Origin: Pirellulales bacterium
Lineage (GTDB): Bacteria > Planctomycetota > Planctomycetia > Pirellulales > UBA1268
Reading direction: 5' to 3'
DNA: 64,000 bases
Assembly: GCA_018401745.1 (NCBI GenBank)
Contig: JAGYJY010000008.1
Coordinates: 31,699-95,698, forward strand
The position numbers were made by a program, and so were the translations under genes. The notes beneath the pieces are model-generated. The model had not been told where the DNA came from and made no database searches. It saw only the letters and a program-made list of their open reading frames with translations. Positions 9,550-51,742 of this stretch are shown piece after piece; position 1 is the stretch's first letter, and each line of letters begins with the position of its first letter.

Positions 9550-10251
9550 CGTTCGCCTCAGCCTCAGCGGCCCGGCCGACGCCAGCGCGAGCAGCGTGGC
9601 AGGCCAGCAGTCTGGCCCCGTCACTGCAAAGGCCAGCATGCGGCGGAAGTCGTCGCGATCGACCTCCAGCACCCCAAACTGGGCGAGATGGTCTGTGGCA
9701 ACCTGAACGTCAAAGAGCATGCAGCCCGACGCATGCAACGCCTGCACGAGACGAACAAGGGCCACTTTGGAGGCATCCCTCTCCAGGGAAAACATCGACT
9801 CGCCAGCAAACATTCCGCCCAGGCAGACGCCGTAGAGGCCTCCCACCAGCCACCCCTCCCGCCAGACCTCCACGCTGTGCGCGACGCCGCGGTGGTGCAG
9901 GTGCAAATACGCATCACAGATCTGAGGCGTGATCCAGGTGGCTTCCTGTCGGTCGCCAACCGTGGCGCAGGCCTCCATCACTTTTTCAAAGCAGCTGTCG
10001 GCGGTGACCACAAACCGCCCGCTGGCGAGCGTGCGAGCAAGCCGCCGGGGGATGTGCAGGCTCGCTGGCAGCAGGATGGCCCGCGGGTCGGGCGACCACC
10101 AGAGGAGTCCCTGGGGGCTCTCGTCAACAGGCCAGGGGAAAACGCCCCGGCGGTAGGCCTCGCTGAGCCGATCGGGCGTGAGCGGCCCGCCAACGGCCAC
10201 GAGCCCGTCTGGGGCCCATCGCGACGGCGGGGGAAAACTGTTCGATGGCAT
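9271..10251 (-). CDS. aat: Leucyl/phenylalanyl-tRNA--protein transferase, with an unusually long 3' tail as sequenced
   Basis: GLVAVGG, AYRRGVFPW, WWSPDPR, GESMFS, DASKVAL, FDVQ motifs. ATG at 10251. The conserved domain ends near RRMLAFAV, but the frame stays open for about 110 more codons into cinA. Confidence 0.8.
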   Translation of the reverse strand: MPSNSFPPPSRWAPDGLVAVGGPLTPDRLSEAYRRGVFPWPVDESPQGLLWWSPDPRAILLPASLHIPRRLARTLASGRFVVTADSCFEKVMEACATVGDRQEATWITPQICDAYLHLHHRGVAHSVEVWREGWLVGGLYGVCLGGMFAGESMFSLERDASKVALVRLVQALHASGCMLFDVQVATDHLAQFGVLEVDRDDFRRMLAFAVTGPDCWPATLLALASAGPLRLRRTSVDRRQPGGQSPEQVERCFGRSRVPQRSSATQQMVMPAGVVGSDDRHRQPLAALGIAPHVSHSHRGGGLQLAAAGFGHLHNIDPGITGAEQA

Positions 10252-13725: not shown

Positions 13726-16700
13726 TCAGCTGCTGCCATCGGCGGCGGGCTTGTCGCGCTCGCGCGTGTCTGCTGGAGGCGGGCTCTCCAGCGGCGGCGG
13801 GTCGTCAAGAAACGACGTGAAGTTAAACGACTCGCCGTCGTCAGCGGCCGGCTTGGCAGCCGGCCTGGGCGGAGGAGGAGGCGGGTCGTCGACAGGTGTG
13901 CCCTGCGGCCGAGCCCGCATCGCCTCGGTAACGCCAGCAAGCCACTCTCCTTGCGGAAAAGCGTAGGGCCGGAACTTCTCCAGCGTGCCGGTCTCCTCGT
14001 GGATGAACAGCGCCCGCTGAGGACCAAGCTTGCTGGCAATCGGCGTTTCCACCAGCTGGCTCGAATCACTGCCGCTCATCTGAAACAAGACGCGGAGCTC
14101 GAACTCCTTGAGCGTTCCGCGTTCGAAGGTCCGCATCAGGTTGGTCAGCGAGTCGCACCAGACGATCGTGTGGACGCCCACGGTGGGGCCATCCTTGAGG
14201 ATGTTGATGAAGTGCTGGGCAGGCCCCAGCTTTTGCTCACTCCCGAAGGAGAAGCCGAAGTCGCCCTCGCTCTTGCGGAACTCCCGGAACCGAGCAAGGT
14301 CGCGAACGACCACGAAGATCGAATCGCCATCGAGCACCTGCTCGTCGAGCCGCCGCTGCACTTCCCCAGCAATCCGCTCGATCGCATCGCCAACACCGAG
14401 GCGACCAACACATTCCATGCGGTGCGGCAGCAGATCCGCGAACTGGGCGAGCATCGTCTCTGGATGCTCCTCAGCAATCGCTGGCTCAAACAGCACAAAG
14501 CGGGCCGGCCGGCCGAGGCCACCGCCAGGGAAGGGATCGTGGCCCGCCGCCAGACCCACCATCGCCATCGCCAGCAGGCTCGTCGCCAGATCCTGACGCT
14601 GGCCGACAATCAGCAGGTTGGAGCCACCCTGCCTGCGGAAGGGAGCGGCGGTCGGATCCTTGATCGCGATCGCATCCCCCAGCCAGGCCATGGCCACAGC
14701 GAGTTCCTTGGCATCGAGCAGGCCGCTTTCGGCCGTGCCTTTGCTGAGAAGGTCGCCTAGGAGGCTGTTGCCCGCTGGATCGGCAGCCTGGTTTCCATCG
14801 AACACAATCCGCGATAGCGGCTCGATATCAGGCCGCCTCGCCGCGAGCTGCTGCAACGCTCCCAGGTATTTCTCCCGCCGCTCGTCGCCAAGCCACACCA
14901 CCTGAAACGGATTGTTGCCCTCGACCATGCCGTTGGCGTCGTTGTAGATCGCTTCACCGGGCCGAGTGAGCAGCCGAGCCGCTGAGTTGTCTTCGCTGAG
15001 AATCAGCGAGCTGTCGGCCTCGTTGCACTGCAGAGCGATCCGCACGGCCATCTGGCCCATCGTGCTCCTGGGCAGGCTGTAGGAGCCGCCGAGCGTCTGT
15101 GAGCCGAGCAGCACGTGCATGCCGAAAGCACGCCCCTGCCGCACCAAGCGGTCGAGCACCAGCGAGGCATCCTGAGCGAGCTTGTCGTCTTCAATGAAGA
15201 TCTCCTGAAACTCGTCGATAATCAGCAGGATGCGAGGCATCGGCTCGGGGTGGCCCGAAGCCCGATACCCAGCCAGGTTTTGCACAGCGAGATCGCGAAA
15301 GAGGTCGCCGCGTCGCTTCAGCTCGCTGTCGAGCTGCTGCAGCACCGAGAGGCCAAACTCGCGTTCGCTTTCGATCGCGATCACGCGGGCATGTGGAAGC
15401 TTGTAGTGGTCGTAAACCTTAAACTCCACGCCCTTCTTAAAGTCGATGAGATAGAACTGCACTTCGTCGGGGCTGTAGGTCAACGCGAGGTTGGTAATCA
15501 ACGCATGCATCATCGTTGACTTACCAGAACCTGTCTTGCCGGCAATCAACACATGCTGGCTCGTGCCCTTGCCAAGTTTCATGTGCTGCATCTTCTTTGC
15601 GCCAGCAGGGCCCAGCGGCACATCAATCTGGTCGCCGCTATCCCCAGTCCACCAGTCGCCCTCTTCCGGCGCTACGCGCTCAAACGGCACCTCCACCCGC
15701 TTGGCGGCCTTCGCCAACCGGCCGGCGTTGTGGACAATCTTCGTCATCACGTCGTCGCCAGGCGACTGCTCAACCGCAAGCGGCCAGTTGGAAAACTCAG
15801 GGTCGCTCCAGCGGAAGCGGCCATCCTGCAGATCGAGGACGGTGGCGTATTTGGCCAGCTCGTCGATGCTGAAGTTGGCCGGCAGCTGCTGCTTCGTGTC
15901 GACCGAGATGATCGTGGAAACGCCGCAGCGGGCTCCGGAGGAGGCAATGCTGATCAGGCGGCGGGCGGAGGTTTCGGTGAAGTTGGCCGGGAAGTTGGCC
16001 ACCACGACAAAGCGATACGGCTCCGGCACCTCCGCATCCTGGTTGTAGGTACCGATTGATGCATACTCGTTGCGGAGATACTTCTGAATCACAAGCTCCA
16101 TCTGCTCTGTGATGTCGGCGAGCCGCTGCTCGATCTGCGTGGGCTCAGTCCAGATGCGACTGTTCACCAGCAGCTCGTCGTAGTCAGCCAGATGCATGAA
16201 ACCAGCGAAGTGTTTGCCGAGACCGACTGGATCGATGATCGTAAACCTGGTCTGGCCGGCAGGGATGCCTGTGGCGATTCGCAGCATCATCGCCTGCATC
16301 ATCTCAGACGCCACGTCGGCTTGGCCGGCTGATGTCTTGATCAGAAGCGAGGCTGCATCGGGAAACGGGGTCATCGACGGCTGTTGCCAGGCCGTCGGAC
16401 CGTAGGCGTTGAGCTCCGCATGGGGCGAGACACCGCCCTTGATCTTCTCAAGCGCGACCGCCAGCTGCCCAAACCGGAGGCCCACCGGCGCGTCGGCGGG
16501 GAAGGCCGCATCGTCTGTGGCCAGACGGTCCCAATCGGCAAAGGCCGCCGCGTCGTATTCGGCAGCCTGCCGCACTATTTCCGTGGCCGACTCCCGGGCC
16601 ACCTTCCAGCGGTCCACCATGTCCTGCCAACGGCTCGCCCGCCGGCTCTCGAGTTCGGCCAACCGATGATCCCGCTTGGTCTCGATGGTGGCCATTCGCT

Positions 16701-17145
16701 CGGCCCGCTGCCCTTCGAGCTTTTCAATCGCAGGCGGATAGGTGCCGCCAGCCTGCTCGAGCAGCTCTCTGCGTTTGGCTGCTGCCGACTCCACCGCTGC
16801 CGCCGCTTTGGCCTCCAGCGCGGCGAGTTCGGCATCCCGCTTGGCGGTCAACGTCTCGATGTCTGCCGCGAGCTTCTTCTGCCGCCGTGCAACCTCCTCC
16901 TTGTAGGTCTTTTCCAGCGACGCCTGCTGCTGATCGCGGCGGGCAGCGACAAAGGCAGCCGCTGCCGCCAGCGCCTTGCCTGCACGCTGAAAGTCTCGCT
17001 CCAGCTCGGCGAAGGCCGCCTGCGACGCTTCCTGCAGGAGCTTTGTCCTGCCAAAGACGTTGAGCATCCCAGCACCCGCCTTGGCTGCCGTCAGGCCCGC
17101 CAGGTTCTTCACCGCGTCAACCACCGCCTGATGGAGCTCTTTCAC
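13726..17145 (-). CDS. FtsK/SpoIIIE-family multi-domain ATPase (EssC/EccC-like) with an N-terminal coiled coil and no obvious TM segment
   Basis: One canonical P-loop (LIAGKTGSGKST) with Walker B (ILLIIDEFQ). It is flanked by two degenerate FtsK-like modules (TRFTIIDPVGLGKHF...RFVVVANF; NLLIVGQRQDLAT...IFVVVRDL). Pro-rich acidic C-terminal tail. I place the start at GTG 17145, which overlaps the upstream TGA as GTGA; the first 36 codons from the ORF-track ATG at 17253 are out-of-frame junk. Confidence 0.8.
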   Translation of the reverse strand: MKELHQAVVDAVKNLAGLTAAKAGAGMLNVFGRTKLLQEASQAAFAELERDFQRAGKALAAAAAFVAARRDQQQASLEKTYKEEVARRQKKLAADIETLTAKRDAELAALEAKAAAAVESAAAKRRELLEQAGGTYPPAIEKLEGQRAERMATIETKRDHRLAELESRRASRWQDMVDRWKVARESATEIVRQAAEYDAAAFADWDRLATDDAAFPADAPVGLRFGQLAVALEKIKGGVSPHAELNAYGPTAWQQPSMTPFPDAASLLIKTSAGQADVASEMMQAMMLRIATGIPAGQTRFTIIDPVGLGKHFAGFMHLADYDELLVNSRIWTEPTQIEQRLADITEQMELVIQKYLRNEYASIGTYNQDAEVPEPYRFVVVANFPANFTETSARRLISIASSGARCGVSTIISVDTKQQLPANFSIDELAKYATVLDLQDGRFRWSDPEFSNWPLAVEQSPGDDVMTKIVHNAGRLAKAAKRVEVPFERVAPEEGDWWTGDSGDQIDVPLGPAGAKKMQHMKLGKGTSQHVLIAGKTGSGKSTMMHALITNLALTYSPDEVQFYLIDFKKGVEFKVYDHYKLPHARVIAIESEREFGLSVLQQLDSELKRRGDLFRDLAVQNLAGYRASGHPEPMPRILLIIDEFQEIFIEDDKLAQDASLVLDRLVRQGRAFGMHVLLGSQTLGGSYSLPRSTMGQMAVRIALQCNEADSSLILSEDNSAARLLTRPGEAIYNDANGMVEGNNPFQVVWLGDERREKYLGALQQLAARRPDIEPLSRIVFDGNQAADPAGNSLLGDLLSKGTAESGLLDAKELAVAMAWLGDAIAIKDPTAAPFRRQGGSNLLIVGQRQDLATSLLAMAMVGLAAGHDPFPGGGLGRPARFVLFEPAIAEEHPETMLAQFADLLPHRMECVGRLGVGDAIERIAGEVQRRLDEQVLDGDSIFVVVRDLARFREFRKSEGDFGFSFGSEQKLGPAQHFINILKDGPTVGVHTIVWCDSLTNLMRTFERGTLKEFELRVLFQMSGSDSSQLVETPIASKLGPQRALFIHEETGTLEKFRPYAFPQGEWLAGVTEAMRARPQGTPVDDPPPPPPRPAAKPAADDGESFNFTSFLDDPPPLESPPPADTRERDKPAADGSS

Positions 17146-17774
17146 ATGGGCGAGGATCTCGCCGCCGGAGGGCAGGGAGTTTCCTGCTCGGCTGCAGCTG
17201 GCGGAGCTGACTCGGCTCCATCGATTTTCCGCTCGGCAAGAATCTTCAAACACTTCTCACGGAGTTTGGCAAAGTCCTGCGTGTAGGTCTCGAGGTGCTG
17301 TGAGTCTCGAGCAAAGAGTTTGCCCGGATCGCGTCGCCGCTCCTTGAACGACTCGGCCTCCGTGCTCTCCGCAAAATGCTCGTCTTCCTTCAGCTGCTCT
17401 TTTTTTTGTTCAGCCTGTCGCGTGATCTCGGCAGCCTTCGCATCACGCTGCCGCCCGACCGAGACCTCAGAGTCGCGATACTGCTTTTCAATCCGCTGCT
17501 GCAGTTCCTCAAACTCGCGTTTGGTGCTGGCAATCTTGTCGTCGTAGCGATCGATGGTTTCCTGAATGAGCCGATCCGCCTCCTGCTTCGTCGCCTCACA
17601 GCCGTTCTCGAAGTCGGCCACGATGGTCCGTTCGAGGCTTGCCCGGGTGGCCGCCTCTTCCCGCAGCGACGCGATCACGGCCCGCATCGCGTCGGGCGTG
17701 TAGCTGGAGGCACCAGCCACCTCAGCCAAAGCAGTGGTGGTCGAAGTCGTCGTTTCGTCCATCGAATCGGCCAT
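17142..17774 (-). CDS. Coiled-coil protein of unknown function (type VII-like cluster)
   Basis: 210-aa charged heptad-rich sequence (EFEELQQRIEKQYRD, KKEQLKEDEHFAEST). Same strand as, and stop/start-coupled with, the downstream ATPase. Confidence 0.6.
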   Translation of the reverse strand: MADSMDETTTSTTTALAEVAGASSYTPDAMRAVIASLREEAATRASLERTIVADFENGCEATKQEADRLIQETIDRYDDKIASTKREFEELQQRIEKQYRDSEVSVGRQRDAKAAEITRQAEQKKEQLKEDEHFAESTEAESFKERRRDPGKLFARDSQHLETYTQDFAKLREKCLKILAERKIDGAESAPPAAAEQETPCPPAARSSPM

Positions 17775-17920: not shown

Positions 17921-18157
17921 TCATTCCCCTCCGTATTCACTCACATCACGTGACGCACGGGAGAGCACCTCGGCCAGCCGGCCGAGCGCTTCAAGCGTTT
18001 CTTTGACTTTGGGTGTCAGCGGCTCGATGCAGTCTTTATGAAACTGCTTGGCCGTCTGATCGCGCCAGGTATCTTCGGCTGCCTGCCACTTGATATCGAG
18101 TTGCTTGACGGCCAGCGCGAGCTTCGACGCGCCACTGGCGAGATTGCCCGCCTTCAT
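17921..18157 (-). CDS. Small helical WXG100-like protein (78 aa)
   Basis: Two predicted helices around a central TWRDQTAKQF turn, which aligns with STWRDQEHQKF in the 90-aa paralog. ATG overlaps the upstream stop as ATGA. Confidence 0.6.
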   Translation of the reverse strand: MKAGNLASGASKLALAVKQLDIKWQAAEDTWRDQTAKQFHKDCIEPLTPKVKETLEALGRLAEVLSRASRDVSEYGGE

Positions 18158-18776
18158 GCTTCGCCTCCCGCCGTGTTGGCTTGCTCAGCTGGGGCACCTG
18201 ACGCCCTCTCAGCGGCCTTGGTGTCTTCGTCGAGCGAGCGACGCATGCTGCCCTCGCCGGATGTCTCCCCGGCAGCAGTTCCACCGGAAGGGCCCGACAT
18301 CTCACGGTAGGCCTCGAGGGCCTTGAGCATCCGTTCGACCAGTGCCATCGCCTTGGGCACATCGACATCGAGCACCTCGCGGAAGTGCACGAGCCGCACA
18401 CCCGTCTCGCGAAACTGCTGCTGCACGATCGGCGTCCAATGACGGACGGCCTCCGCCTTTTCCTCGGCCACCTGCAGCCGGCGGCGGGCCTTTTCCAGGT
18501 TCTTTTCTCTTCGGTGCAGGCCGGTGGGCCGTCGCCAGTGCTCTTGAAGGTGCGGCACTTCTCGAGGTCTTTCATCGCCTCGTTGACCTTCTCGCCGCGC
18601 CGCCGCACTTCGGCCTTCCAGTAGCCGGCCTGATCGACGGTGATCCACTCCACGCCGCGGCGGCCCTCCAGCTCGACCTCCGACAAGGCCTGACCGCACT
18701 CATACGCAAAGGTGGCCAGCGCCGCCTTGACGAAAGAAAGCGTGTCGATCGAACGGACTTCGGCCTGGCCTGCCAT
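18154..18776 (-). pseudogene. Helical protein of unknown function (about 208 aa if repaired); frame broken once near an A-run
   Basis: ORF 18036..18776 is protein-like only to ...KSTGDGPPACTEEK. ORF 18154..18699 is protein-like only from NLEKARRRLQVAEEKAEAV onward. Adding one A to the run at plus-strand 18503-18506 joins them. Confidence 0.6.
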
Positions 18777-18825: not shown

Positions 18826-19098
18826 TCAACGCTGCTGCATGTATTCCTCAACACGCTCCGCTTTGCGGAGCAGGTAGGGGACATATTCGCCCGTCGACTC
18901 CACGAAACGCCCGAAGGTGGCAAGCTGCTGCTCAAACTCCTCGGAAAACTTCTGGTGCTCCTGGTCGCGCCAGGTCGAGCCGAGATGCTGGAGCTGCCGC
19001 TGCACGGTCTGCATGTGCGTCATCACCTCGCCGCTGAAATGCTTGAGACGCGCCGCGAATCGGCGAAGTTCATCCGGATCGACGATGGCCTGTCCCAT
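18826..19098 (-). CDS. Small helical WXG100-like protein (90 aa)
   Basis: MGQAIVDPDELRRFAARL... follows the ESAT-6/WXG100 layout: an N-terminal 'I.VDP..L..fA' helix, a central W43-R-D45 turn where WXG normally sits, then F..EF and a second helix. Confidence 0.65.
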   Translation of the reverse strand: MGQAIVDPDELRRFAARLKHFSGEVMTHMQTVQRQLQHLGSTWRDQEHQKFSEEFEQQLATFGRFVESTGEYVPYLLRKAERVEEYMQQR

Positions 19099-32247: not shown

Positions 32248-32366
32248 GATCATTCTCCCTGGCACAACAGCGGCGGCGAGATGGGCTACATTGCCCCTCG
32301 GCTGGACCTTCCGCAGACGGAGACATTCCGTCGCACAATCGCCACCACGCCACAGAAAGTGTACGC

Positions 32367-34687
32367 ATGTTCATTCTTCATGCAAGCAGCCGGTCTGCCA
32401 ACTCGTTTCACGGTCTCGCGAGCCTGCGACGGGTGCTGACTGTGGCCCTGCTGGCACTCGGGAGTTCCCCTGCCGTGGCAGCCGCAGCCGACACCGCTTC
32501 CACTGGAGAGACGCCGATGCCCGCCACAAACCAGACCACCAGTGACGATCCGCACCTCTGGCTTGAAGAGGTGCTCGGCGACGACGCCCTGGCCTGGGTG
32601 CGGCAACGCAACGAGCAGACACTCGAGCAGCTGGCGAAACGCCCGATGTTCTCCAGCCTTGAGGCGACGCTGCAGACGATTCTCGACGACGACCAGCGGA
32701 TTCCCGCGGTCACGAAGCGGGGCGATTTTTTCTACAACTTCTGGCGAGACAAGACTCATCCGCGAGGCCTCTGGCGCCGGACGACGCTGGCGGAATACCG
32801 TCGCCACGCCCCTGCCTGGGAGGTGCTGCTCGACCTTGATGCCCTCGGTCAGCAGGAAGATGAAAACTGGGTCTGGGCCGGCGCCAAGGTGCTCAGGCCT
32901 GCCTGCAGCCGCGCCCTCGTGCAGCTCTCCAGAGGCGGTGCCGACGCCAGGGTGGTCCGCGAGTTCGACCTGACGACGAAGCAGTTTGTCGATGATGGCT
33001 TTGAGGTGCCCGAGGCGAAGGGCTCGGTCAGCTGGATCGACGACAACCACATCTTCGTGGCCTCCGACTTCGGTCCCGGCTCGATGACCGACTCCGGCTA
33101 CCCACGCACCGTTCGCCTGTGGCAGCGGGGCACACCGCTGGCCGATGCGACCGTGGTCTTTGAGGGCAGCCCTCAGGACATGTCGGTGTCGGCCTTCCAC
33201 GACGATTCCCCTGGCTACGAGCGGGACTACGTGCGGAGGACCCCGTCCTTCTACGCCGACGAGATGTTTGTGCGGGAGGCCGATAGCCGCCTGCGGAAGA
33301 TTGAGGTGCCCGACTCCGCATCCAAGGGCATCTTCCGCGGCCTCCTCACGGTGGAGCTCCGCGAGCCCTGGCAGCATGGCGGCACCACCTATCAGGCCGG
33401 CACGCTGCTGCTGGCAGACCTGGAGTCGTTTCTGGCGGCCGAAAGTGGCACGGTCCCGCCTGAGCAGCGTCCGCTGGCTGTGGCCTTCGAACCCGATGCG
33501 CGGCAGGCCCTGGCCGCAGCGACCTTCACCAAAAACGCGCTGGCGCTGACGATCCTGGCGGACGTGAAGAACCGGGTGGAGGTGATCGACCTCAGCGGCT
33601 GCGACACGGGGTCGCCCGCCGAACGCATCGCTCTGATCCGCCAGACGGTGTCAGACCACCGCATCCTTCGCCGCAGGTCCGGAGATCGGCACCGTCAGCC
33701 TCGGTGCCGTCGACGCCGACGAGTCCGATGAGGTCTTCGTGACCACCACTGGCTTCCTCGAGCCGACCGCACTCGCGCTGGGCTCGCTGGCCTCTCCCGA
33801 AGCCCTGACGGAGCCCCTCAAGGAGCTGCCGAGCTTCTTCGAAACCGCAGGGCTCAGCGTGCAGCAGCACTTCGCCACGAGCGATGACGGCACCCGCGTT
33901 CCCTACTTCCTGATCGGCCCGGCCGAGAAGCTCGCAGGCGCAGGGGCGGGCGACGCAGCCGTGCCATCCGGCAGTCCCACGGTGCTCTATGCCTACGGTG
34001 GCTTCGAGATCTCCCTCCTGCCGCGCTACGACCCTCTTGTTGGCAAGGCCTGGCTGGAGAAGGGCGGGGTGTATGCCATCGCCAACATCCGCGGTGGGGG
34101 CGAGTATGGCCCTCGCTGGCACCAGGCCGCGCTCAAAGCCAACCGGCTGCGGGCCTACGAGGACTGCGCGGCGGTCGCCCGCGACCTCATTGAGCGGGAC
34201 ATCACCACGCCAGCGCAGCTGGCCGTCAAGGGTGGCTCCAACGGTGGCCTGCTGGTGGGCAACATGCTCACCAGCTATCCGCAGCTCTTCGCTGCAACCG
34301 TCTGCCAGGTGCCGCTGCTCGACATGCAGCGGTATAGCCAGCTGCTCGCGGGGGCGTCGTGGATGCAGGAATACGGCAATCCCGACAAGCCAGAGGAGTG
34401 GGCGTTTCTCAAAAACTTCTCCCCCTACCACAAGGTCGAGGAGCGGGGCCTCGCGAGGCCGGCCTATCCGATCACGCTGCTGCTGACCTCCACTCGTGAT
34501 GACCGCGTGCATCCTGGGCACGCCCGCAAGATGATGGCCAAGCTGGAAGCAGCTGGGGCATCCGGCCCTCTACTACGAAAACATCGAGGGAGGCCATGGA
34601 GGCGCAGCGACCAACAAGCAGCAGGCCTTCATGCAGTCGCTGGCCTGGACATTTCTTGCCGAGCAGCTGGGCCTGACGAGCGACTGA
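32367..34687 (+). pseudogene. Prolyl oligopeptidase (S9) family serine peptidase, reading frame broken twice
   Basis: Signal peptide and propeller half in ORF 32367..33731; catalytic half (GGSNGGLLVG nucleophile region, DDRVHP) in ORF 33739... The first break lies within 33637-33690. Removing one G from the GGGG at 34555-34558 restores ...EAAGHPALYYENIEGGHGGAATNKQQAFMQSLAWTFLAEQLGLTSD with a stop at 34685-34687. Confidence 0.8.
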
Positions 34688-34746
34688 GTCGGTCTCGGTC
34701 GCCAGCATGCGACGGACCGCTGCGACGGACCACTGCACAGTGGCGG

Positions 34747-35430
34747 TCAGCCTTCGGGCGGCCGGCCATCCAAGGCGGCTTTGACTGCCAGCCGTGCCTG
34801 CCGCCATCGCGTTTTGATCGTTCGCGTGGAGCAGCCGATCACGGCGGCCGCGGTCTCCTGGCTCGCGCCCATATACCAGACGAGATCAAACACCTCGCGG
34901 GCGTCGGGTGGAAGCTGCTCAACCGCTTCATGAAACGCCGACCATCGCTCCAGCGGCTCCTGGCGAGCCGGAGCCTGATCAACCGCGTGCTGCAGCCCGC
35001 CGGAATCATCCTCGCCGATCACGTTGGTGCCGTGATTGGCCTCATACGCCCCCTGGCTGGTGGAGCGGCGGGCCAGGTCGACGAGCTCACGATGCATCTG
35101 CGTGCCGGCCAGCGCGAGCAGGCCACGGGCCGATGTCGGCTGCGTGTCGGCAAGGGCGCGATGCAGCCGCATCGCCGCAGCCTGGAAGAGATCGTCGGTG
35201 TCGTTCCAGCGACGAACCCGCGGAAACCGGGAGAGCATGCGATGGGCGAGGAGGTGAAGCCGCTCGCTGCACAGCTCGATGACGCGGCCGCGAGCCTCGA
35301 GGTTGCCCAGCGCGATCTCTTCAAGGCAGCCGGCAATCTCATCCGCAAGCACGCCGGAATCTCGGCTGGCCGGCCGGTGAACGCTGCTCGTGCCCGACGT
35401 TCGGTCGTGCTGCTGCATCGGGAAATCCAT
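34747..35430 (-). CDS. ECF-type sigma-70 family sigma factor
   Basis: Region 2 (DTDDLFQAAAMRLHRAL) and region 4 HTH (EVFDLVWYMGASQETAAAVIGCSTRTIKTRWRQARL). Confidence 0.8.
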   Translation of the reverse strand: MDFPMQQHDRTSGTSSVHRPASRDSGVLADEIAGCLEEIALGNLEARGRVIELCSERLHLLAHRMLSRFPRVRRWNDTDDLFQAAAMRLHRALADTQPTSARGLLALAGTQMHRELVDLARRSTSQGAYEANHGTNVIGEDDSGGLQHAVDQAPARQEPLERWSAFHEAVEQLPPDAREVFDLVWYMGASQETAAAVIGCSTRTIKTRWRQARLAVKAALDGRPPEG

Positions 35431-35532
35431 CGGTTTGGTGAGGGAGCGATGGCATGCCCTTAAAAAAGTTGCCCCTCCCCGCCCTGATTCTCGCCTACGA
35501 AAGTAGGACGTGTCGACCGCAGGGTGGGGATT

Positions 35533-47411: not shown

Positions 47412-50901
<3,490 letters not shown>

Positions 50902-50906
50902 GCGTC

Positions 50907-51742
50907 CTATAGTTCCGCCGCACCTGCATCACGAACAATCGCCGTGATGACCGCTCTCAGCTTTGGCTCCGCCGACCGGGCGACTGCGAGAATCTTCTCC
51001 ACGCTCGCCTCCTCGAGGGCATCCGGCAGGCACATGTCGGTGACCACCGAGAGGCCGAGCACCTTCAGCCCGGCATGCACCGCGACGATGACTTCAGGCA
51101 CCGTCGACATGCCCACCACATCGGCTCCAATCGTCCGCAGGAAGCGGTATTCCGCCCGCGTCTCAGGTTCGGCCCCGTGACCGCCACGTAGACACCCCGG
51201 TGGGCAACAAAGTTTTCCTGCCGGGCGATCTCCAGCGCTCGATCGATAAACTCCGGCGTGTAGGGGGCCGACATGTCGGGGAAGCGGGGCCCGAGGCGAT
51301 CGTCGTTGATCCCAATCAACGGGTTGCCGTTCATCAGGTTGATGTGGTCATCGATCACCATGATGTCGCCAGCACTGTAGTGCGGATTCATGCCGCCGCA
51401 GGCGTTGGTGACGATCAGCGTCTCCCCGCCAAGCCGCTTGAGCACACGCACCGGCAGGGTGATCTGGTCGAGCGGGTAGCCCTCGTAGGCATGCATGCGG
51501 CCCTCAAGCACGACCACCGGCACGCCTTCCAGCAGACCACAGACCAGCTGCCCGGCATGGCCATGGGCGGTCGATTTGGCGTAGTGAGGGATCTCCTCAT
51601 AAGGAATCACCACCCGCTCGGTCACCTGCTCGGCAACGCTGCCAAGGCCGCTGCCGAGAATGATGCCGACAGCGGGCTGGAGGGCCCAGCGGCTGGAAAT
51701 CGCCTGAGAGGCTTCTTCAATCTGGTCGTGGAGATGCAGCAT
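50907..51742 (-). pseudogene. Purine nucleoside phosphorylase (PunA-type), frame broken once
   Basis: GIILGSGLG, GRMHAYEGY and VTNACGG are in ORF 51065..51742. [19 protein letters not shown] follows in ORF 50907..51119. Adding one G near 51163-51166 restores [20 protein letters not shown]. Confidence 0.85.

Follow-up and report, generated by a model that had tools for sequence, protein, structure and literature searches.

A Pirellulales gene split by a one-base frameshift is predicted to encode an EccC/EssC-like ATPase within a Planctomycetota-wide WXG100 cassette

In a window of 64,000 nucleotides (nt) from a Pirellulales bacterium (GenBank assembly GCA_018401745.1, contig JAGYJY010000008.1, positions 31,699 to 95,698), we analyzed an open reading frame (ORF) on the minus strand, 13726..17253, that a previous sequence-only reading had flagged as an EssC-like ATPase of atypical architecture. 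We lean towards the interpretation that this ORF is part of a single gene split by an assembly error, that the gene encodes an ATPase built on the EccC/EssC plan, and that this ATPase, encoded by the last gene of a phylum-wide cassette, acts as a putative motor resembling those of type VII secretion systems (T7SS). What had been flagged is in part an assembly artefact and in part real. As far as can be judged from sequence, an uncharacterized, phylum-wide T7SS-like cassette with natural variants lacking transmembrane (TM) segments appears to be new, whereas the kind of motor, that of EccC and EssC, is known.

The flagged ORF is present as described; it encodes 1175 amino acids (aa) from a GTG codon and shows coding-type composition, with a GC content of 0.78 at third codon positions (GC3) and 0.45 at second codon positions (GC2). 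It represents the 3' 85% of a single gene at 13726-17774, of which the upstream ORF of 210 aa (17142-17774) is the 5' part. A search of 5.8 billion proteins retrieved more than 3000 relatives of the ATPase, nearly all of 1320-1430 aa. The closest over the flagged ORF, P0002 (99% identity) and P0003 (98%), both comprise 1349 aa, and the further close relatives P0004 (88%) and P0007 (84%) are likewise single ORFs across both window ORFs; the fused relatives at 84-99% identity range from 1333 to 1349 aa. They start with MADSMDE..., the start of the upstream 210-aa ORF, and run via ...AAAEQETPLPSGGEILAHVKELHQ... directly into the sequence of the flagged ORF. At the DNA level, the window is ~96% identical to L001 (an NCBI contig from a metagenome-assembled genome (MAG), GCA_027618575.1) and to L002 (an ENA scaffold), and BLASTN aligned 'AGGAAACT-CCCTGCCC' of the window with 'AGGAAACTCCCCTGCCC' in both of them; L001 and L002 read ACTCCCCTGCCC where the window reads ACTCCCTGCCC and is one C short. 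With one base restored, the gene reads as an ORF of 1349 aa whose full-length identity to P0003 is 96.5%. Thus, because the relatives are fused, the extra C is present in two independent assemblies, and a one-base repair restores the frame, we concluded from these comparisons that the two window ORFs are one gene of ~1349 codons. P0001 (1174 aa) was considered as support for a short protein and was rejected, as it is cut by a 100-N scaffold gap. The sequence-only reading had doubted an ATG start at 17253 and had preferred a GTG at 17145 overlapping the stop of a separate coiled-coil gene. The codon at 17253 is in fact GTG, and neither position initiates the gene, which extends to an ATG at 17774 across a one-base deletion in a C run; the ATGTGA/GTG overlap exists because the shifted frame meets a stop, and the separate upstream gene is an artefact of the frameshift.

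The loss of the C is very probably an assembly artefact. Within the same cassette, a gene for a 207-aa protein is also frameshifted, with AAAA in the window against AAAAA in L001 and L002 at the A run 18502-18506, and adding one base produces an intact ORF that agrees with its relatives at the junction. Elsewhere in the window, ileS is split over two overlapping frames (48252-50928, minus strand, junction at ~49775-49809); the TIGR00392 profile is matched from position 5 to 344 in 49498-50928 and from 349 onward in 48252-49925. Since this essential, single-copy gene is broken in the same manner, homopolymer indel errors appear to be present in this assembly. The propeller and catalytic domains of an S9 prolyl-oligopeptidase lie in two overlapping ORFs in different frames (32250-35463, plus strand), which is probably another frameshift, less clean than that of ileS and with incomplete domain coverage. 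At ~9566, a one-base insertion compared with L002 lies a few codons before the end of a Leu/Phe-tRNA-protein transferase gene.

It is improbable that the frameshift is real, with the cassette decaying and both the ATPase and 207-aa genes being pseudogenes, or with expression switched by homopolymer slippage. The comparison of 13 kb with the relatives lends this some weight, as the only two gene-breaking frameshift indels in it both fall in homopolymers of this operon, and the third 1-nt indel, at 9566, is just a few codons from the end of a neighboring gene. However, we estimated a chance of ~0.17 that two of two such indels fall in the 5.3-kb operon within 13 kb; moreover, both halves of the ATPase gene keep coding-type composition, the repaired ORF closely matches P0003, and the splitting of ileS, and probably of the S9 peptidase gene, points to a general indel error rate. 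Two genuine genes, encoding a 210-aa coiled-coil protein and an ATPase starting at GTG 17145 and translationally coupled via ATGTGA, are scarcely credible: this overlap is present in the window as read, and from 17145 to 17253 the ATPase frame has a low GC3, but every full-length relative is fused, including those 98-99% identical, the junction peptide ...EQETPLPSGGEILAHV... is kept in frame among them, and the sole difference is one C absent from a homopolymer. A homopolymer indel at this position thus mimics translationally coupled genes convincingly but falsely, which is a lesson for annotation.

The encoded ATPase is predicted to consist of three EccC-like modules (A, B, and C) with one competent site. 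Pfam detected one FtsK_SpoIIIE domain on the flagged ORF (aa 541-720, E 1e-33), together with weak P-loop echoes. Among NCBIfam hidden Markov models (HMMs), EccCa scored 116.4 bits (E 1e-33), EssC 109.7 (E 9e-32), and EccCb 100.4, all over D1 regions only, compared with 39.9 bits for FtsK; sequence matches in the PDB included EccC D1 of 4nh0 (E 1e-34), 9qks (E 2e-25), EccC5, and YukB. Only the middle module, B, has intact Walker motifs, GKTGSGKST and LLIIDEF, just as the sequence-only reading had claimed, and the flanking modules lack GK[ST] and DE. In hhalign comparisons with module B, both module A and module C aligned colinearly (E 0.004 in each case, over 199 columns for C). In module C, NLLIVGQRQDLAT was aligned to HVLIAGKTGSGKST and GPTVGVHTIVWCDSL to GRAFGMHVLLGSQTL, and IFVVVRDL was recognized by eye as the counterpart of ILLIIDEF in module B. 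Module A is degenerate as had been stated, but IIDPVGLGKHF, which had been put forward as its P-loop, is not that element; the Walker-A equivalent is LLIKTSAGQADVAS, and IIDPVGLGKHF aligns with LIDFKKGVEF of module B, in the strand after the P-loop helix. We take this strand to be the 'IDPK' strand of FtsK.

We also addressed the conservation of the modules in 149 representatives of the wider family, drawn from 50%-identity clusters and 44-54% identical to the query. Module B retained GK[ST] and DE in 148 of them, and both the consensus and the common variants of modules A and C were without these motifs. Even so, few parts of the protein are as highly conserved as modules A and C, which indicates that these degenerate modules are functional. 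Its position suggests that module A is the counterpart of the EccC DUF domain. The profile of module C showed a weak preference (E 1e-3) for EccC5 residues 869-1029, which we take to be D2, and an assignment to D2 or D3 of EccC was dropped because this preference is weak. EccC and EssC normally pair a live D1 with degenerate modules (the DUF domain and, in some systems, D3). Thus, although the architecture is atypical, as the sequence-only reading had stressed, degenerate modules beside a live D1 are less so than was claimed.

For the 1139 residues that follow the frameshift, AlphaFold (model m9e4703c13f04; alignment of 103 sequences; mean predicted local distance difference test (pLDDT) score 72) placed three alpha/beta modules after a long helix. 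In Foldseek comparisons with the PDB, the top match was the cytoplasmic domain of Thermomonospora curvata EccC, 4nh0, comprising D1-D3 (E 2e-25, 982 columns), followed by D2-D3 fragments of EccC and EssC, FtsK motors, ESX-3 EccC3 chains, and the YukB unit of Bacillus subtilis with its DUF domain. The three modules matched the three domains of 4nh0 in order. Taken together, the HMM matches, the profile-profile alignments, the predicted structure, and the Foldseek search bear out an EssC-like ATPase.

The N-terminal coiled coil of about 215 residues that had been described is in part a long helix, but its length did not hold. The repaired protein has an N-terminal helical region of ~425 aa dominated by helices of 155 and 169 residues (helix 1 and helix 2), and the hydrophobic period is 3.64-3.67, corresponding to 11/3 (hendecad), not to the heptad value of 3.5. 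For helix 1, whose period is 3.64, none of 300 shuffles reached the observed power; for helix 2, the best period of 3.66 was not significant (p = 0.12). The long helices are thus amphipathic and of hendecad rather than classical heptad type, and the period reaches significance in helix 1 alone. With its family profile, helix 2 weakly matched apolipoprotein A-I (E 1e-4), and in forms lacking TM segments, the long helices might bind the membrane surface. Conservation runs in mirrored gradients: it peaks where helix 1 begins and where helix 2 ends and is lowest beside the hairpin described below. This pattern is compatible with, but does not prove, a stalk in which the two helices are paired antiparallel. 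Correlating the two helical parts by length gave no information (r = -0.08), as both lengths are nearly invariant.

That the protein contains no hydrophobic segment is true of the window protein but is not a feature of the family. No TM segment was detected in the flagged ORF or in the repaired 1349-aa protein, in which the highest 19-residue Kyte-Doolittle window (KD19) reached 1.38. At the corresponding position, between the two helices, 212 of 233 full-length relatives (~91%) carry a strongly hydrophobic block (KD19 up to 3.0), in most cases resolved into two segments that together cover a median of 59 residues. In TM-bearing relatives, this hairpin is followed by a basic RxRxxAR stretch, which implies that both flanks are cytoplasmic, as in EccC and EssC. 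The hairpin is preceded by 221 residues (interquartile range (IQR) 213-234), and 269 residues (IQR 266-272) separate its end from the IDPxGxG motif; the narrow spread of both lengths also favors a stalk. In the clade of the window (P0002-P0007), the hairpin is cleanly gone and AGAGMLNVFGRTK remains; part of this scar (model residues 20-33) is a loop of low pLDDT. A second TM-less clade, P0089 and 11 others, has other deletion boundaries (TIFGG-LKK), and P0114 represents a third deletion with boundaries of its own. In a neighbor-joining tree of the ATPase part, these three TM-less groups stood apart, and each was nearest to TM-bearing sequences of 86-92% identity. Given the 212 carriers among 233 relatives, the three deletions with different boundaries, and the TM-bearing nearest relatives, we concluded that the hairpin is ancestral and was lost independently at least three times; the absence of TM segments from the window protein is real, but a derived and recurrent loss. 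These natural variants with and without the hairpin offer a ready comparison on the need for membrane spanning.

The Pro-rich acidic tail is as the sequence-only reading had quoted it; Pro makes up 28% and Asp 15% of the last 60 residues. A motif F.F..[FLY][LIM][DE][DE] at the end of the tail is shared by 80 of 120 close homologs, whether they have the TM hairpin or not. Nine ends inspected in the wider family stop soon after module C, and one of them has a loosely similar acidic end. The tail and its FNFxxFLDD motif thus appear to be confined to a subfamily of at least 65% identity, and FNFTSFLDDPP is probably a docking motif for a partner.

The ATPase gene is the last of a four-gene cassette that runs, on one strand and with short gaps or 4-nt overlaps, from a 90-aa WXG100 gene through the 207-aa gene and a 78-aa WXG100-like gene. 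The same order was found in L001, L002, and contigs in which the ATPase is 65-68% identical, with sizes of 90-107, 207-218, and 77-78 aa for the three small proteins. The 90-aa gene lies 1.05 kb upstream of the ATPase gene in the same orientation; its product passed the Pfam gathering threshold for WXG100 (36.7 against 27.3 bits) and scored below the TIGR03930 cut-off (33.8 against 44.85). It was present in 54 of 80 retrieved loci and is 49-94% identical across the phylum, with the central motif W-R-D, not W-x-G, in all relatives displayed and a nearly invariant C-terminus, RKAERVEEYxQQR. The 78-aa protein remained below the Pfam cut-off (22.8 against 27.3 bits) and matched TIGR03930 with E 6e-4; both WXG100-like proteins have W-x-D (WRDQ) in place of W-x-G. 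The 207-aa protein combines a helical region of ~165 aa, bearing a conserved C-x12-C loop, with a disordered tail; it gave no significant match in Pfam, NCBIfam, or PADLOC, and its weak hhalign matches to the WXG100 and 78-aa families (E 0.04-0.09) suggest that it is possibly WXG-like. In the 80 loci, the WXG100 gene was found upstream of the ATPase gene 54 times, the 207-aa gene 53 times, and the 78-aa gene 58 times, and most of the other loci lack upstream sequence; where this sequence suffices, the ATPase is almost always within the four-gene cassette.

A scan of one genome per species gave at least 578 ATPase loci in Planctomycetota. All of the 80 retrieved loci are labelled as belonging to this phylum, except three in MAGs with evidently wrong or uninformative labels, and they cover Pirellulales, Isosphaeraceae (Singulisphaera sp. 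Ch08), Gemmataceae, Planctomycetaceae, and Phycisphaerae; the family thus appears to be Planctomycetota-specific and to span Planctomycetia and Phycisphaerae. The public names of its members (P0020, P0028, P0030, P0067, etc.) are inconsistent, including 'cell division protein FtsK', 'DNA translocase FtsK', 'S-DNA-T family DNA segregation ATPase', and 'energy-coupling factor transporter ATP-binding protein EcfA2'. T7SS and WXG100 proteins have been described for Actinobacteria, Firmicutes, and a few Chloroflexi (PMC3935865, PMC13492133). In the searchable literature, we found no description of a planctomycete T7SS-like system, and papers on FtsK of Planctopirus limnophila and Gemmata deal with the canonical FtsK only. 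Sutcliffe (2011) reportedly noted WXG100 and FtsK/SpoIIIE genes in several Gram-negative phyla including Planctomycetes. A canonical FtsK of 750-900 aa is encoded separately in planctomycetes, D5SYV8 being that of P. limnophila (PMC6952346), and the canonical planctomycete FtsK is essential (PMC6952346, PMC10632474).

The surroundings of the cassette are of housekeeping type, with chlorite-dismutase-like, YdjY, YggS-like, GreA, HtrA, and CinA genes. In a search restricted to the neighborhood, covering the genes within 6-7 kb on four related contigs, no Pfam families of EccB, EccD, EccE, or MycP or of EsaA, EssA, or EssB were found, and a promoter and terminator scan of the operon region gave nothing above chance. 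In the P0089 clade (L006-L008, 11190-15812), the ATPase gene is followed by genes for an unannotated protein of ~715 aa, for a sigma-70-type factor, and for a Ser/Thr kinase, all three located before the HtrA gene, which directly follows the ATPase gene in other lineages. In PADLOC, the live module matched SspH, mad8, and HerA, and the three small proteins matched nothing; a defence system was rejected because of the core-genome synteny and because these matches are domain-level only. The positions of all features are collected in table 1.

Table 1. Features of the ATPase gene, its product, and the WXG100 cassette in the window; model residues refer to m9e4703c13f04
Feature	Window position	Strand	Model residues	Basis or remark
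Complete ATPase gene as it should read	13726..17774	minus		~1349 codons; window ORFs 17142-17774 and 13726-17253
Frameshift site, CCC run against CCCC in two related assemblies	17175..17177	minus		BLASTN against L001, L002
Helix 1, single continuous alpha-helix (full-protein residues 27-181, 155 aa)	17232..17696	minus		AlphaFold m8bb2c2f2448b, pLDDT ~97
Scar of deleted two-TM hairpin, VKNLAGLTAAKAGAGMLNVFGRTK, Gly/Ala-rich	17041..17112	minus		Alignment with TM-bearing relatives, e.g. P0009 (78% identical)
Short helix			2-20	
Loop			20-33	pLDDT <50
Helix 2, 169-residue single helix (stalk) into the ATPase modules, uninterrupted	16543..17049	minus	33-201	AlphaFold m9e4703c13f04; pLDDT ~70 over most of length
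Module A, degenerate FtsK-like, alpha/beta	15700..16482	minus	222-482	Position of EccC DUF domain; pLDDT ~90
Module A, Walker-A equivalent LLIKTSAGQADVAS	16297-16350	minus		Profile alignment to module B
Module A, Walker-B equivalent FVVVANFP	15973-16017	minus		Profile alignment to module B
Module B, live D1-like ATPase, alpha/beta	14776..15627	minus	507-790	Pfam, NCBIfam, PDB matches; pLDDT 60-80, one insert poorly modelled
Module B, Walker A GKTGSGKST	15514-15540	minus		
Module B, Walker B LLIIDEF	15208-15228	minus		
Module C, degenerate FtsK-like, alpha/beta	13915..14691	minus	819-1077	Colinear with module B; pLDDT ~88
Module C, Walker-A equivalent NLLIVGQRQDLAT	14572-14622	minus		
Module C, Walker-B equivalent FVVVRDL	14281-14325	minus		
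Pro-rich acidic tail	13729..13893	minus		Predicted disordered
Disordered C-terminal tail in the model			1095-1139	pLDDT <50
Tail motif FNFTSFLDDPP	13786-13833	minus		Conserved short motif
90-aa WXG100 family gene, first of cassette	18826..19098	minus		Pfam PF06013, E 5e-9, 36.7 bits against 27.3
207-aa helical protein, no known family	18154..18776	minus		Frameshifted in window at 18502-18506
78-aa WXG100-like gene, WRDQ hairpin motif	17921..18157	minus		Shares 4 nt with the 3' end of the 207-aa gene

With regard to function, the best reading by analogy is that the cassette ATPase would be the motor of an undescribed, minimal T7SS-like system. We derived a possible mechanism by analogy with T7SS ATPases (EccC structures 4NH0, 4N1A, and 7NP7; Rosenberg et al. 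2015; Bunduc et al. 2021). The ATPase would form a hexameric ring in which only module B hydrolyses ATP and drives the cycle, and modules A and C would serve as scaffold, regulator, coupling element, and substrate receptor; the WXG100 C-terminus, which is nearly invariant, would be the candidate ligand of module C. Such a motor would engage or translocate the small helical-hairpin proteins. Where relatives carry the TM hairpin, the two long helices would pair antiparallel into a stalk of ~23 nm (our estimate from 155-169 helical residues), which would hold the ATPase below a TM pore or anchor formed by the hairpins. In the lineage of the window, the motor would have to be a soluble protein, or one bound to the membrane no more than peripherally, and would act in the cytoplasm or at the membrane surface.

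Several observations weigh against a secretion-like motor. We infer both the antiparallel arrangement of the stalk and the receptor function of module C. Among the genes called beside the cassette, there is no recognized T7SS membrane component, and the window protein itself has no TM segment; the repeated loss of the hairpin argues that membrane spanning is not needed. Planctomycetes are diderm, and no route across the outer membrane is evident. The NCBIfam scores, at 110-116 bits, are far below the EssC/EccC cut-offs of 346-778 bits, three P-loop-type modules stand against four in EccC, and the WXG100 proteins have W-x-D, not W-x-G. The degree of conservation of the WXG100 protein is, in our judgement, more housekeeping-like than that of a typical secreted effector. 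Finally, there is the slight chance, discussed above, that the frameshift is genuine.

The strongest alternative is a non-secretory one, which we regard as possible but unlikely: the cassette would be a housekeeping machine of the cytoplasm or the membrane periphery, its EssC-like ring ATPase remodeling, assembling, or unfolding helical-hairpin proteins of WXG100 type and the TM hairpin serving only as a dispensable tether. Since the motor of a TM-less protein would be confined to the cytoplasm or the membrane surface, this alternative stays alive. It is favored by three independent, clean hairpin losses in an otherwise strongly conserved protein and cassette, by the housekeeping synteny (chlorite-dismutase-like, YdjY, GreA, HtrA, and CinA genes), by a WXG100 protein 49-94% identical across the phylum, and by the lack of a membrane partner encoded nearby; furthermore, the 11/3 amphipathic period and the apolipoprotein-like match fit helices lying on a membrane surface. 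However, the hairpin is kept in 91% of the family, its position and the lengths of the stalk being fixed, which suggests that membrane placement matters, and the closest characterized relatives, by sequence and by fold, are secretion motors. We also know of no non-secretory system of WXG100/EssC type. A DNA translocase of FtsK/SpoIIIE type, acting in chromosome segregation or DNA transfer, is very improbable: the Pfam FtsK_SpoIIIE match, source names such as 'DNA translocase FtsK' and 'cell division protein FtsK', and FtsK motor domains among the Foldseek matches are outweighed by the far higher scores of EccCa (116 bits) and EssC (110) than of FtsK (40), by the failure of Pfam to find an FtsK gamma or N-terminal multi-TM domain, by a live module set between degenerate ones as in EccC, by the almost constant coupling of the gene to WXG100 genes, and by the presence of a separate canonical FtsK in planctomycetes (PMC6952346).

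A bolder combination of these elements, which we consider doubtful, is that two hendecad helices of ~160 residues per subunit would build a stalk or conduit of ~23 nm (again our estimate) under a pore made of the subunits' own TM hairpins, that this hairpin was lost at least three times, and that the core job of the WXG100/EssC-type pair would be cytoplasmic housekeeping, not export. If true, such a core role would change the view of the origin of T7SS. An EssC/EccC-like ATPase and its WXG100 cassette are tightly conserved across at least 578 species genomes of Planctomycetota, a diderm phylum whose cell biology is unusual, in a distinct architecture, with known membrane partners not seen nearby and with housekeeping surroundings. 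The results also have annotation value, as the family names FtsK, DNA translocase, and EcfA2 are misleading.

Compared with known systems, the planctomycete ATPase has its best match, in both sequence and fold, in EccC of T7SSa (T. curvata 4NH0 and 4N1A; Mycobacterium tuberculosis EccC5, 7NP7). It shares with EccC the order of parts, namely a TM hairpin in most members, a stalk helix, a degenerate NTPase-like domain, the catalytic D1, and a further FtsK-like domain or domains, and with both EccC and EssC the association with WXG100 genes. It differs from both in having three P-loop-type modules instead of four (DUF and D1-D3). Module C lacks both Walker motifs, whereas D2 and D3 of EccC retain nucleotide-binding motifs; in addition, unlike EccC, the planctomycete protein carries two long helices, one of 155 aa at the N-terminus and one of 169 aa as stalk, its hairpin is gone in the lineage of the window, and no EccB, EccD, EccE, or MycP is encoded near its gene. 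The scores for EccC were 116.4 bits against a cut-off of 509 (TIGR03924) and 100.4 against 347 (TIGR03925). Likeness to EssC/YukB of T7SSb (4LYA, 5FV0, and 9QKS) lies in the tandem FtsK-like modules, with D1 the closest, and degenerate nucleotide sites outside D1 occur in EssC as well. The EssC profile TIGR03928 scored 109.7 bits against 778.4, and was matched only at positions 437-667 of 1296, that is, in D1. The two TM segments typical of EssC and EccC are absent from the window protein and present in 212 of the 233 family members examined. In contrast to EssC, which has two FHA domains at its N-terminus, the planctomycete ATPase has no FHA domain, a point on which the sequence-only reading was right: Pfam detected no FHA family in the window ORF (E up to 0.1) or in full-length P0003 (E up to 1), and the N-terminal domain is modelled as one long helix. 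It further differs from EssC in its long helices, in having one module fewer, in its Pro-rich tail with a conserved motif, and in having no EsaA, EssA, EssB, or EsaB gene nearby. With FtsK/SpoIIIE it has in common the P-loop superfamily, the Pfam domain, the IDP... strand motif, and GxH...SQ after Walker B; it differs in lacking the gamma domain, the N-terminal domain of 4-5 TM segments, and a DNA-related gene context, in line with 39.9 bits against 1566 for the FtsK model NF007615, no gamma family in Pfam, and no TM segment in the window protein. By analogy, then, the planctomycete ATPase would work like EccC and EssC, yet it falls outside both families as they are delimited. In operational terms, a T7SS is an FtsK/SpoIIIE-family ATPase and a WXG100 protein encoded together (PMC4010439), and a multi-domain FtsK/SpoIIIE ATPase encoded beside a WXG100 gene, the minimal form of this definition, is what the cassette contains.

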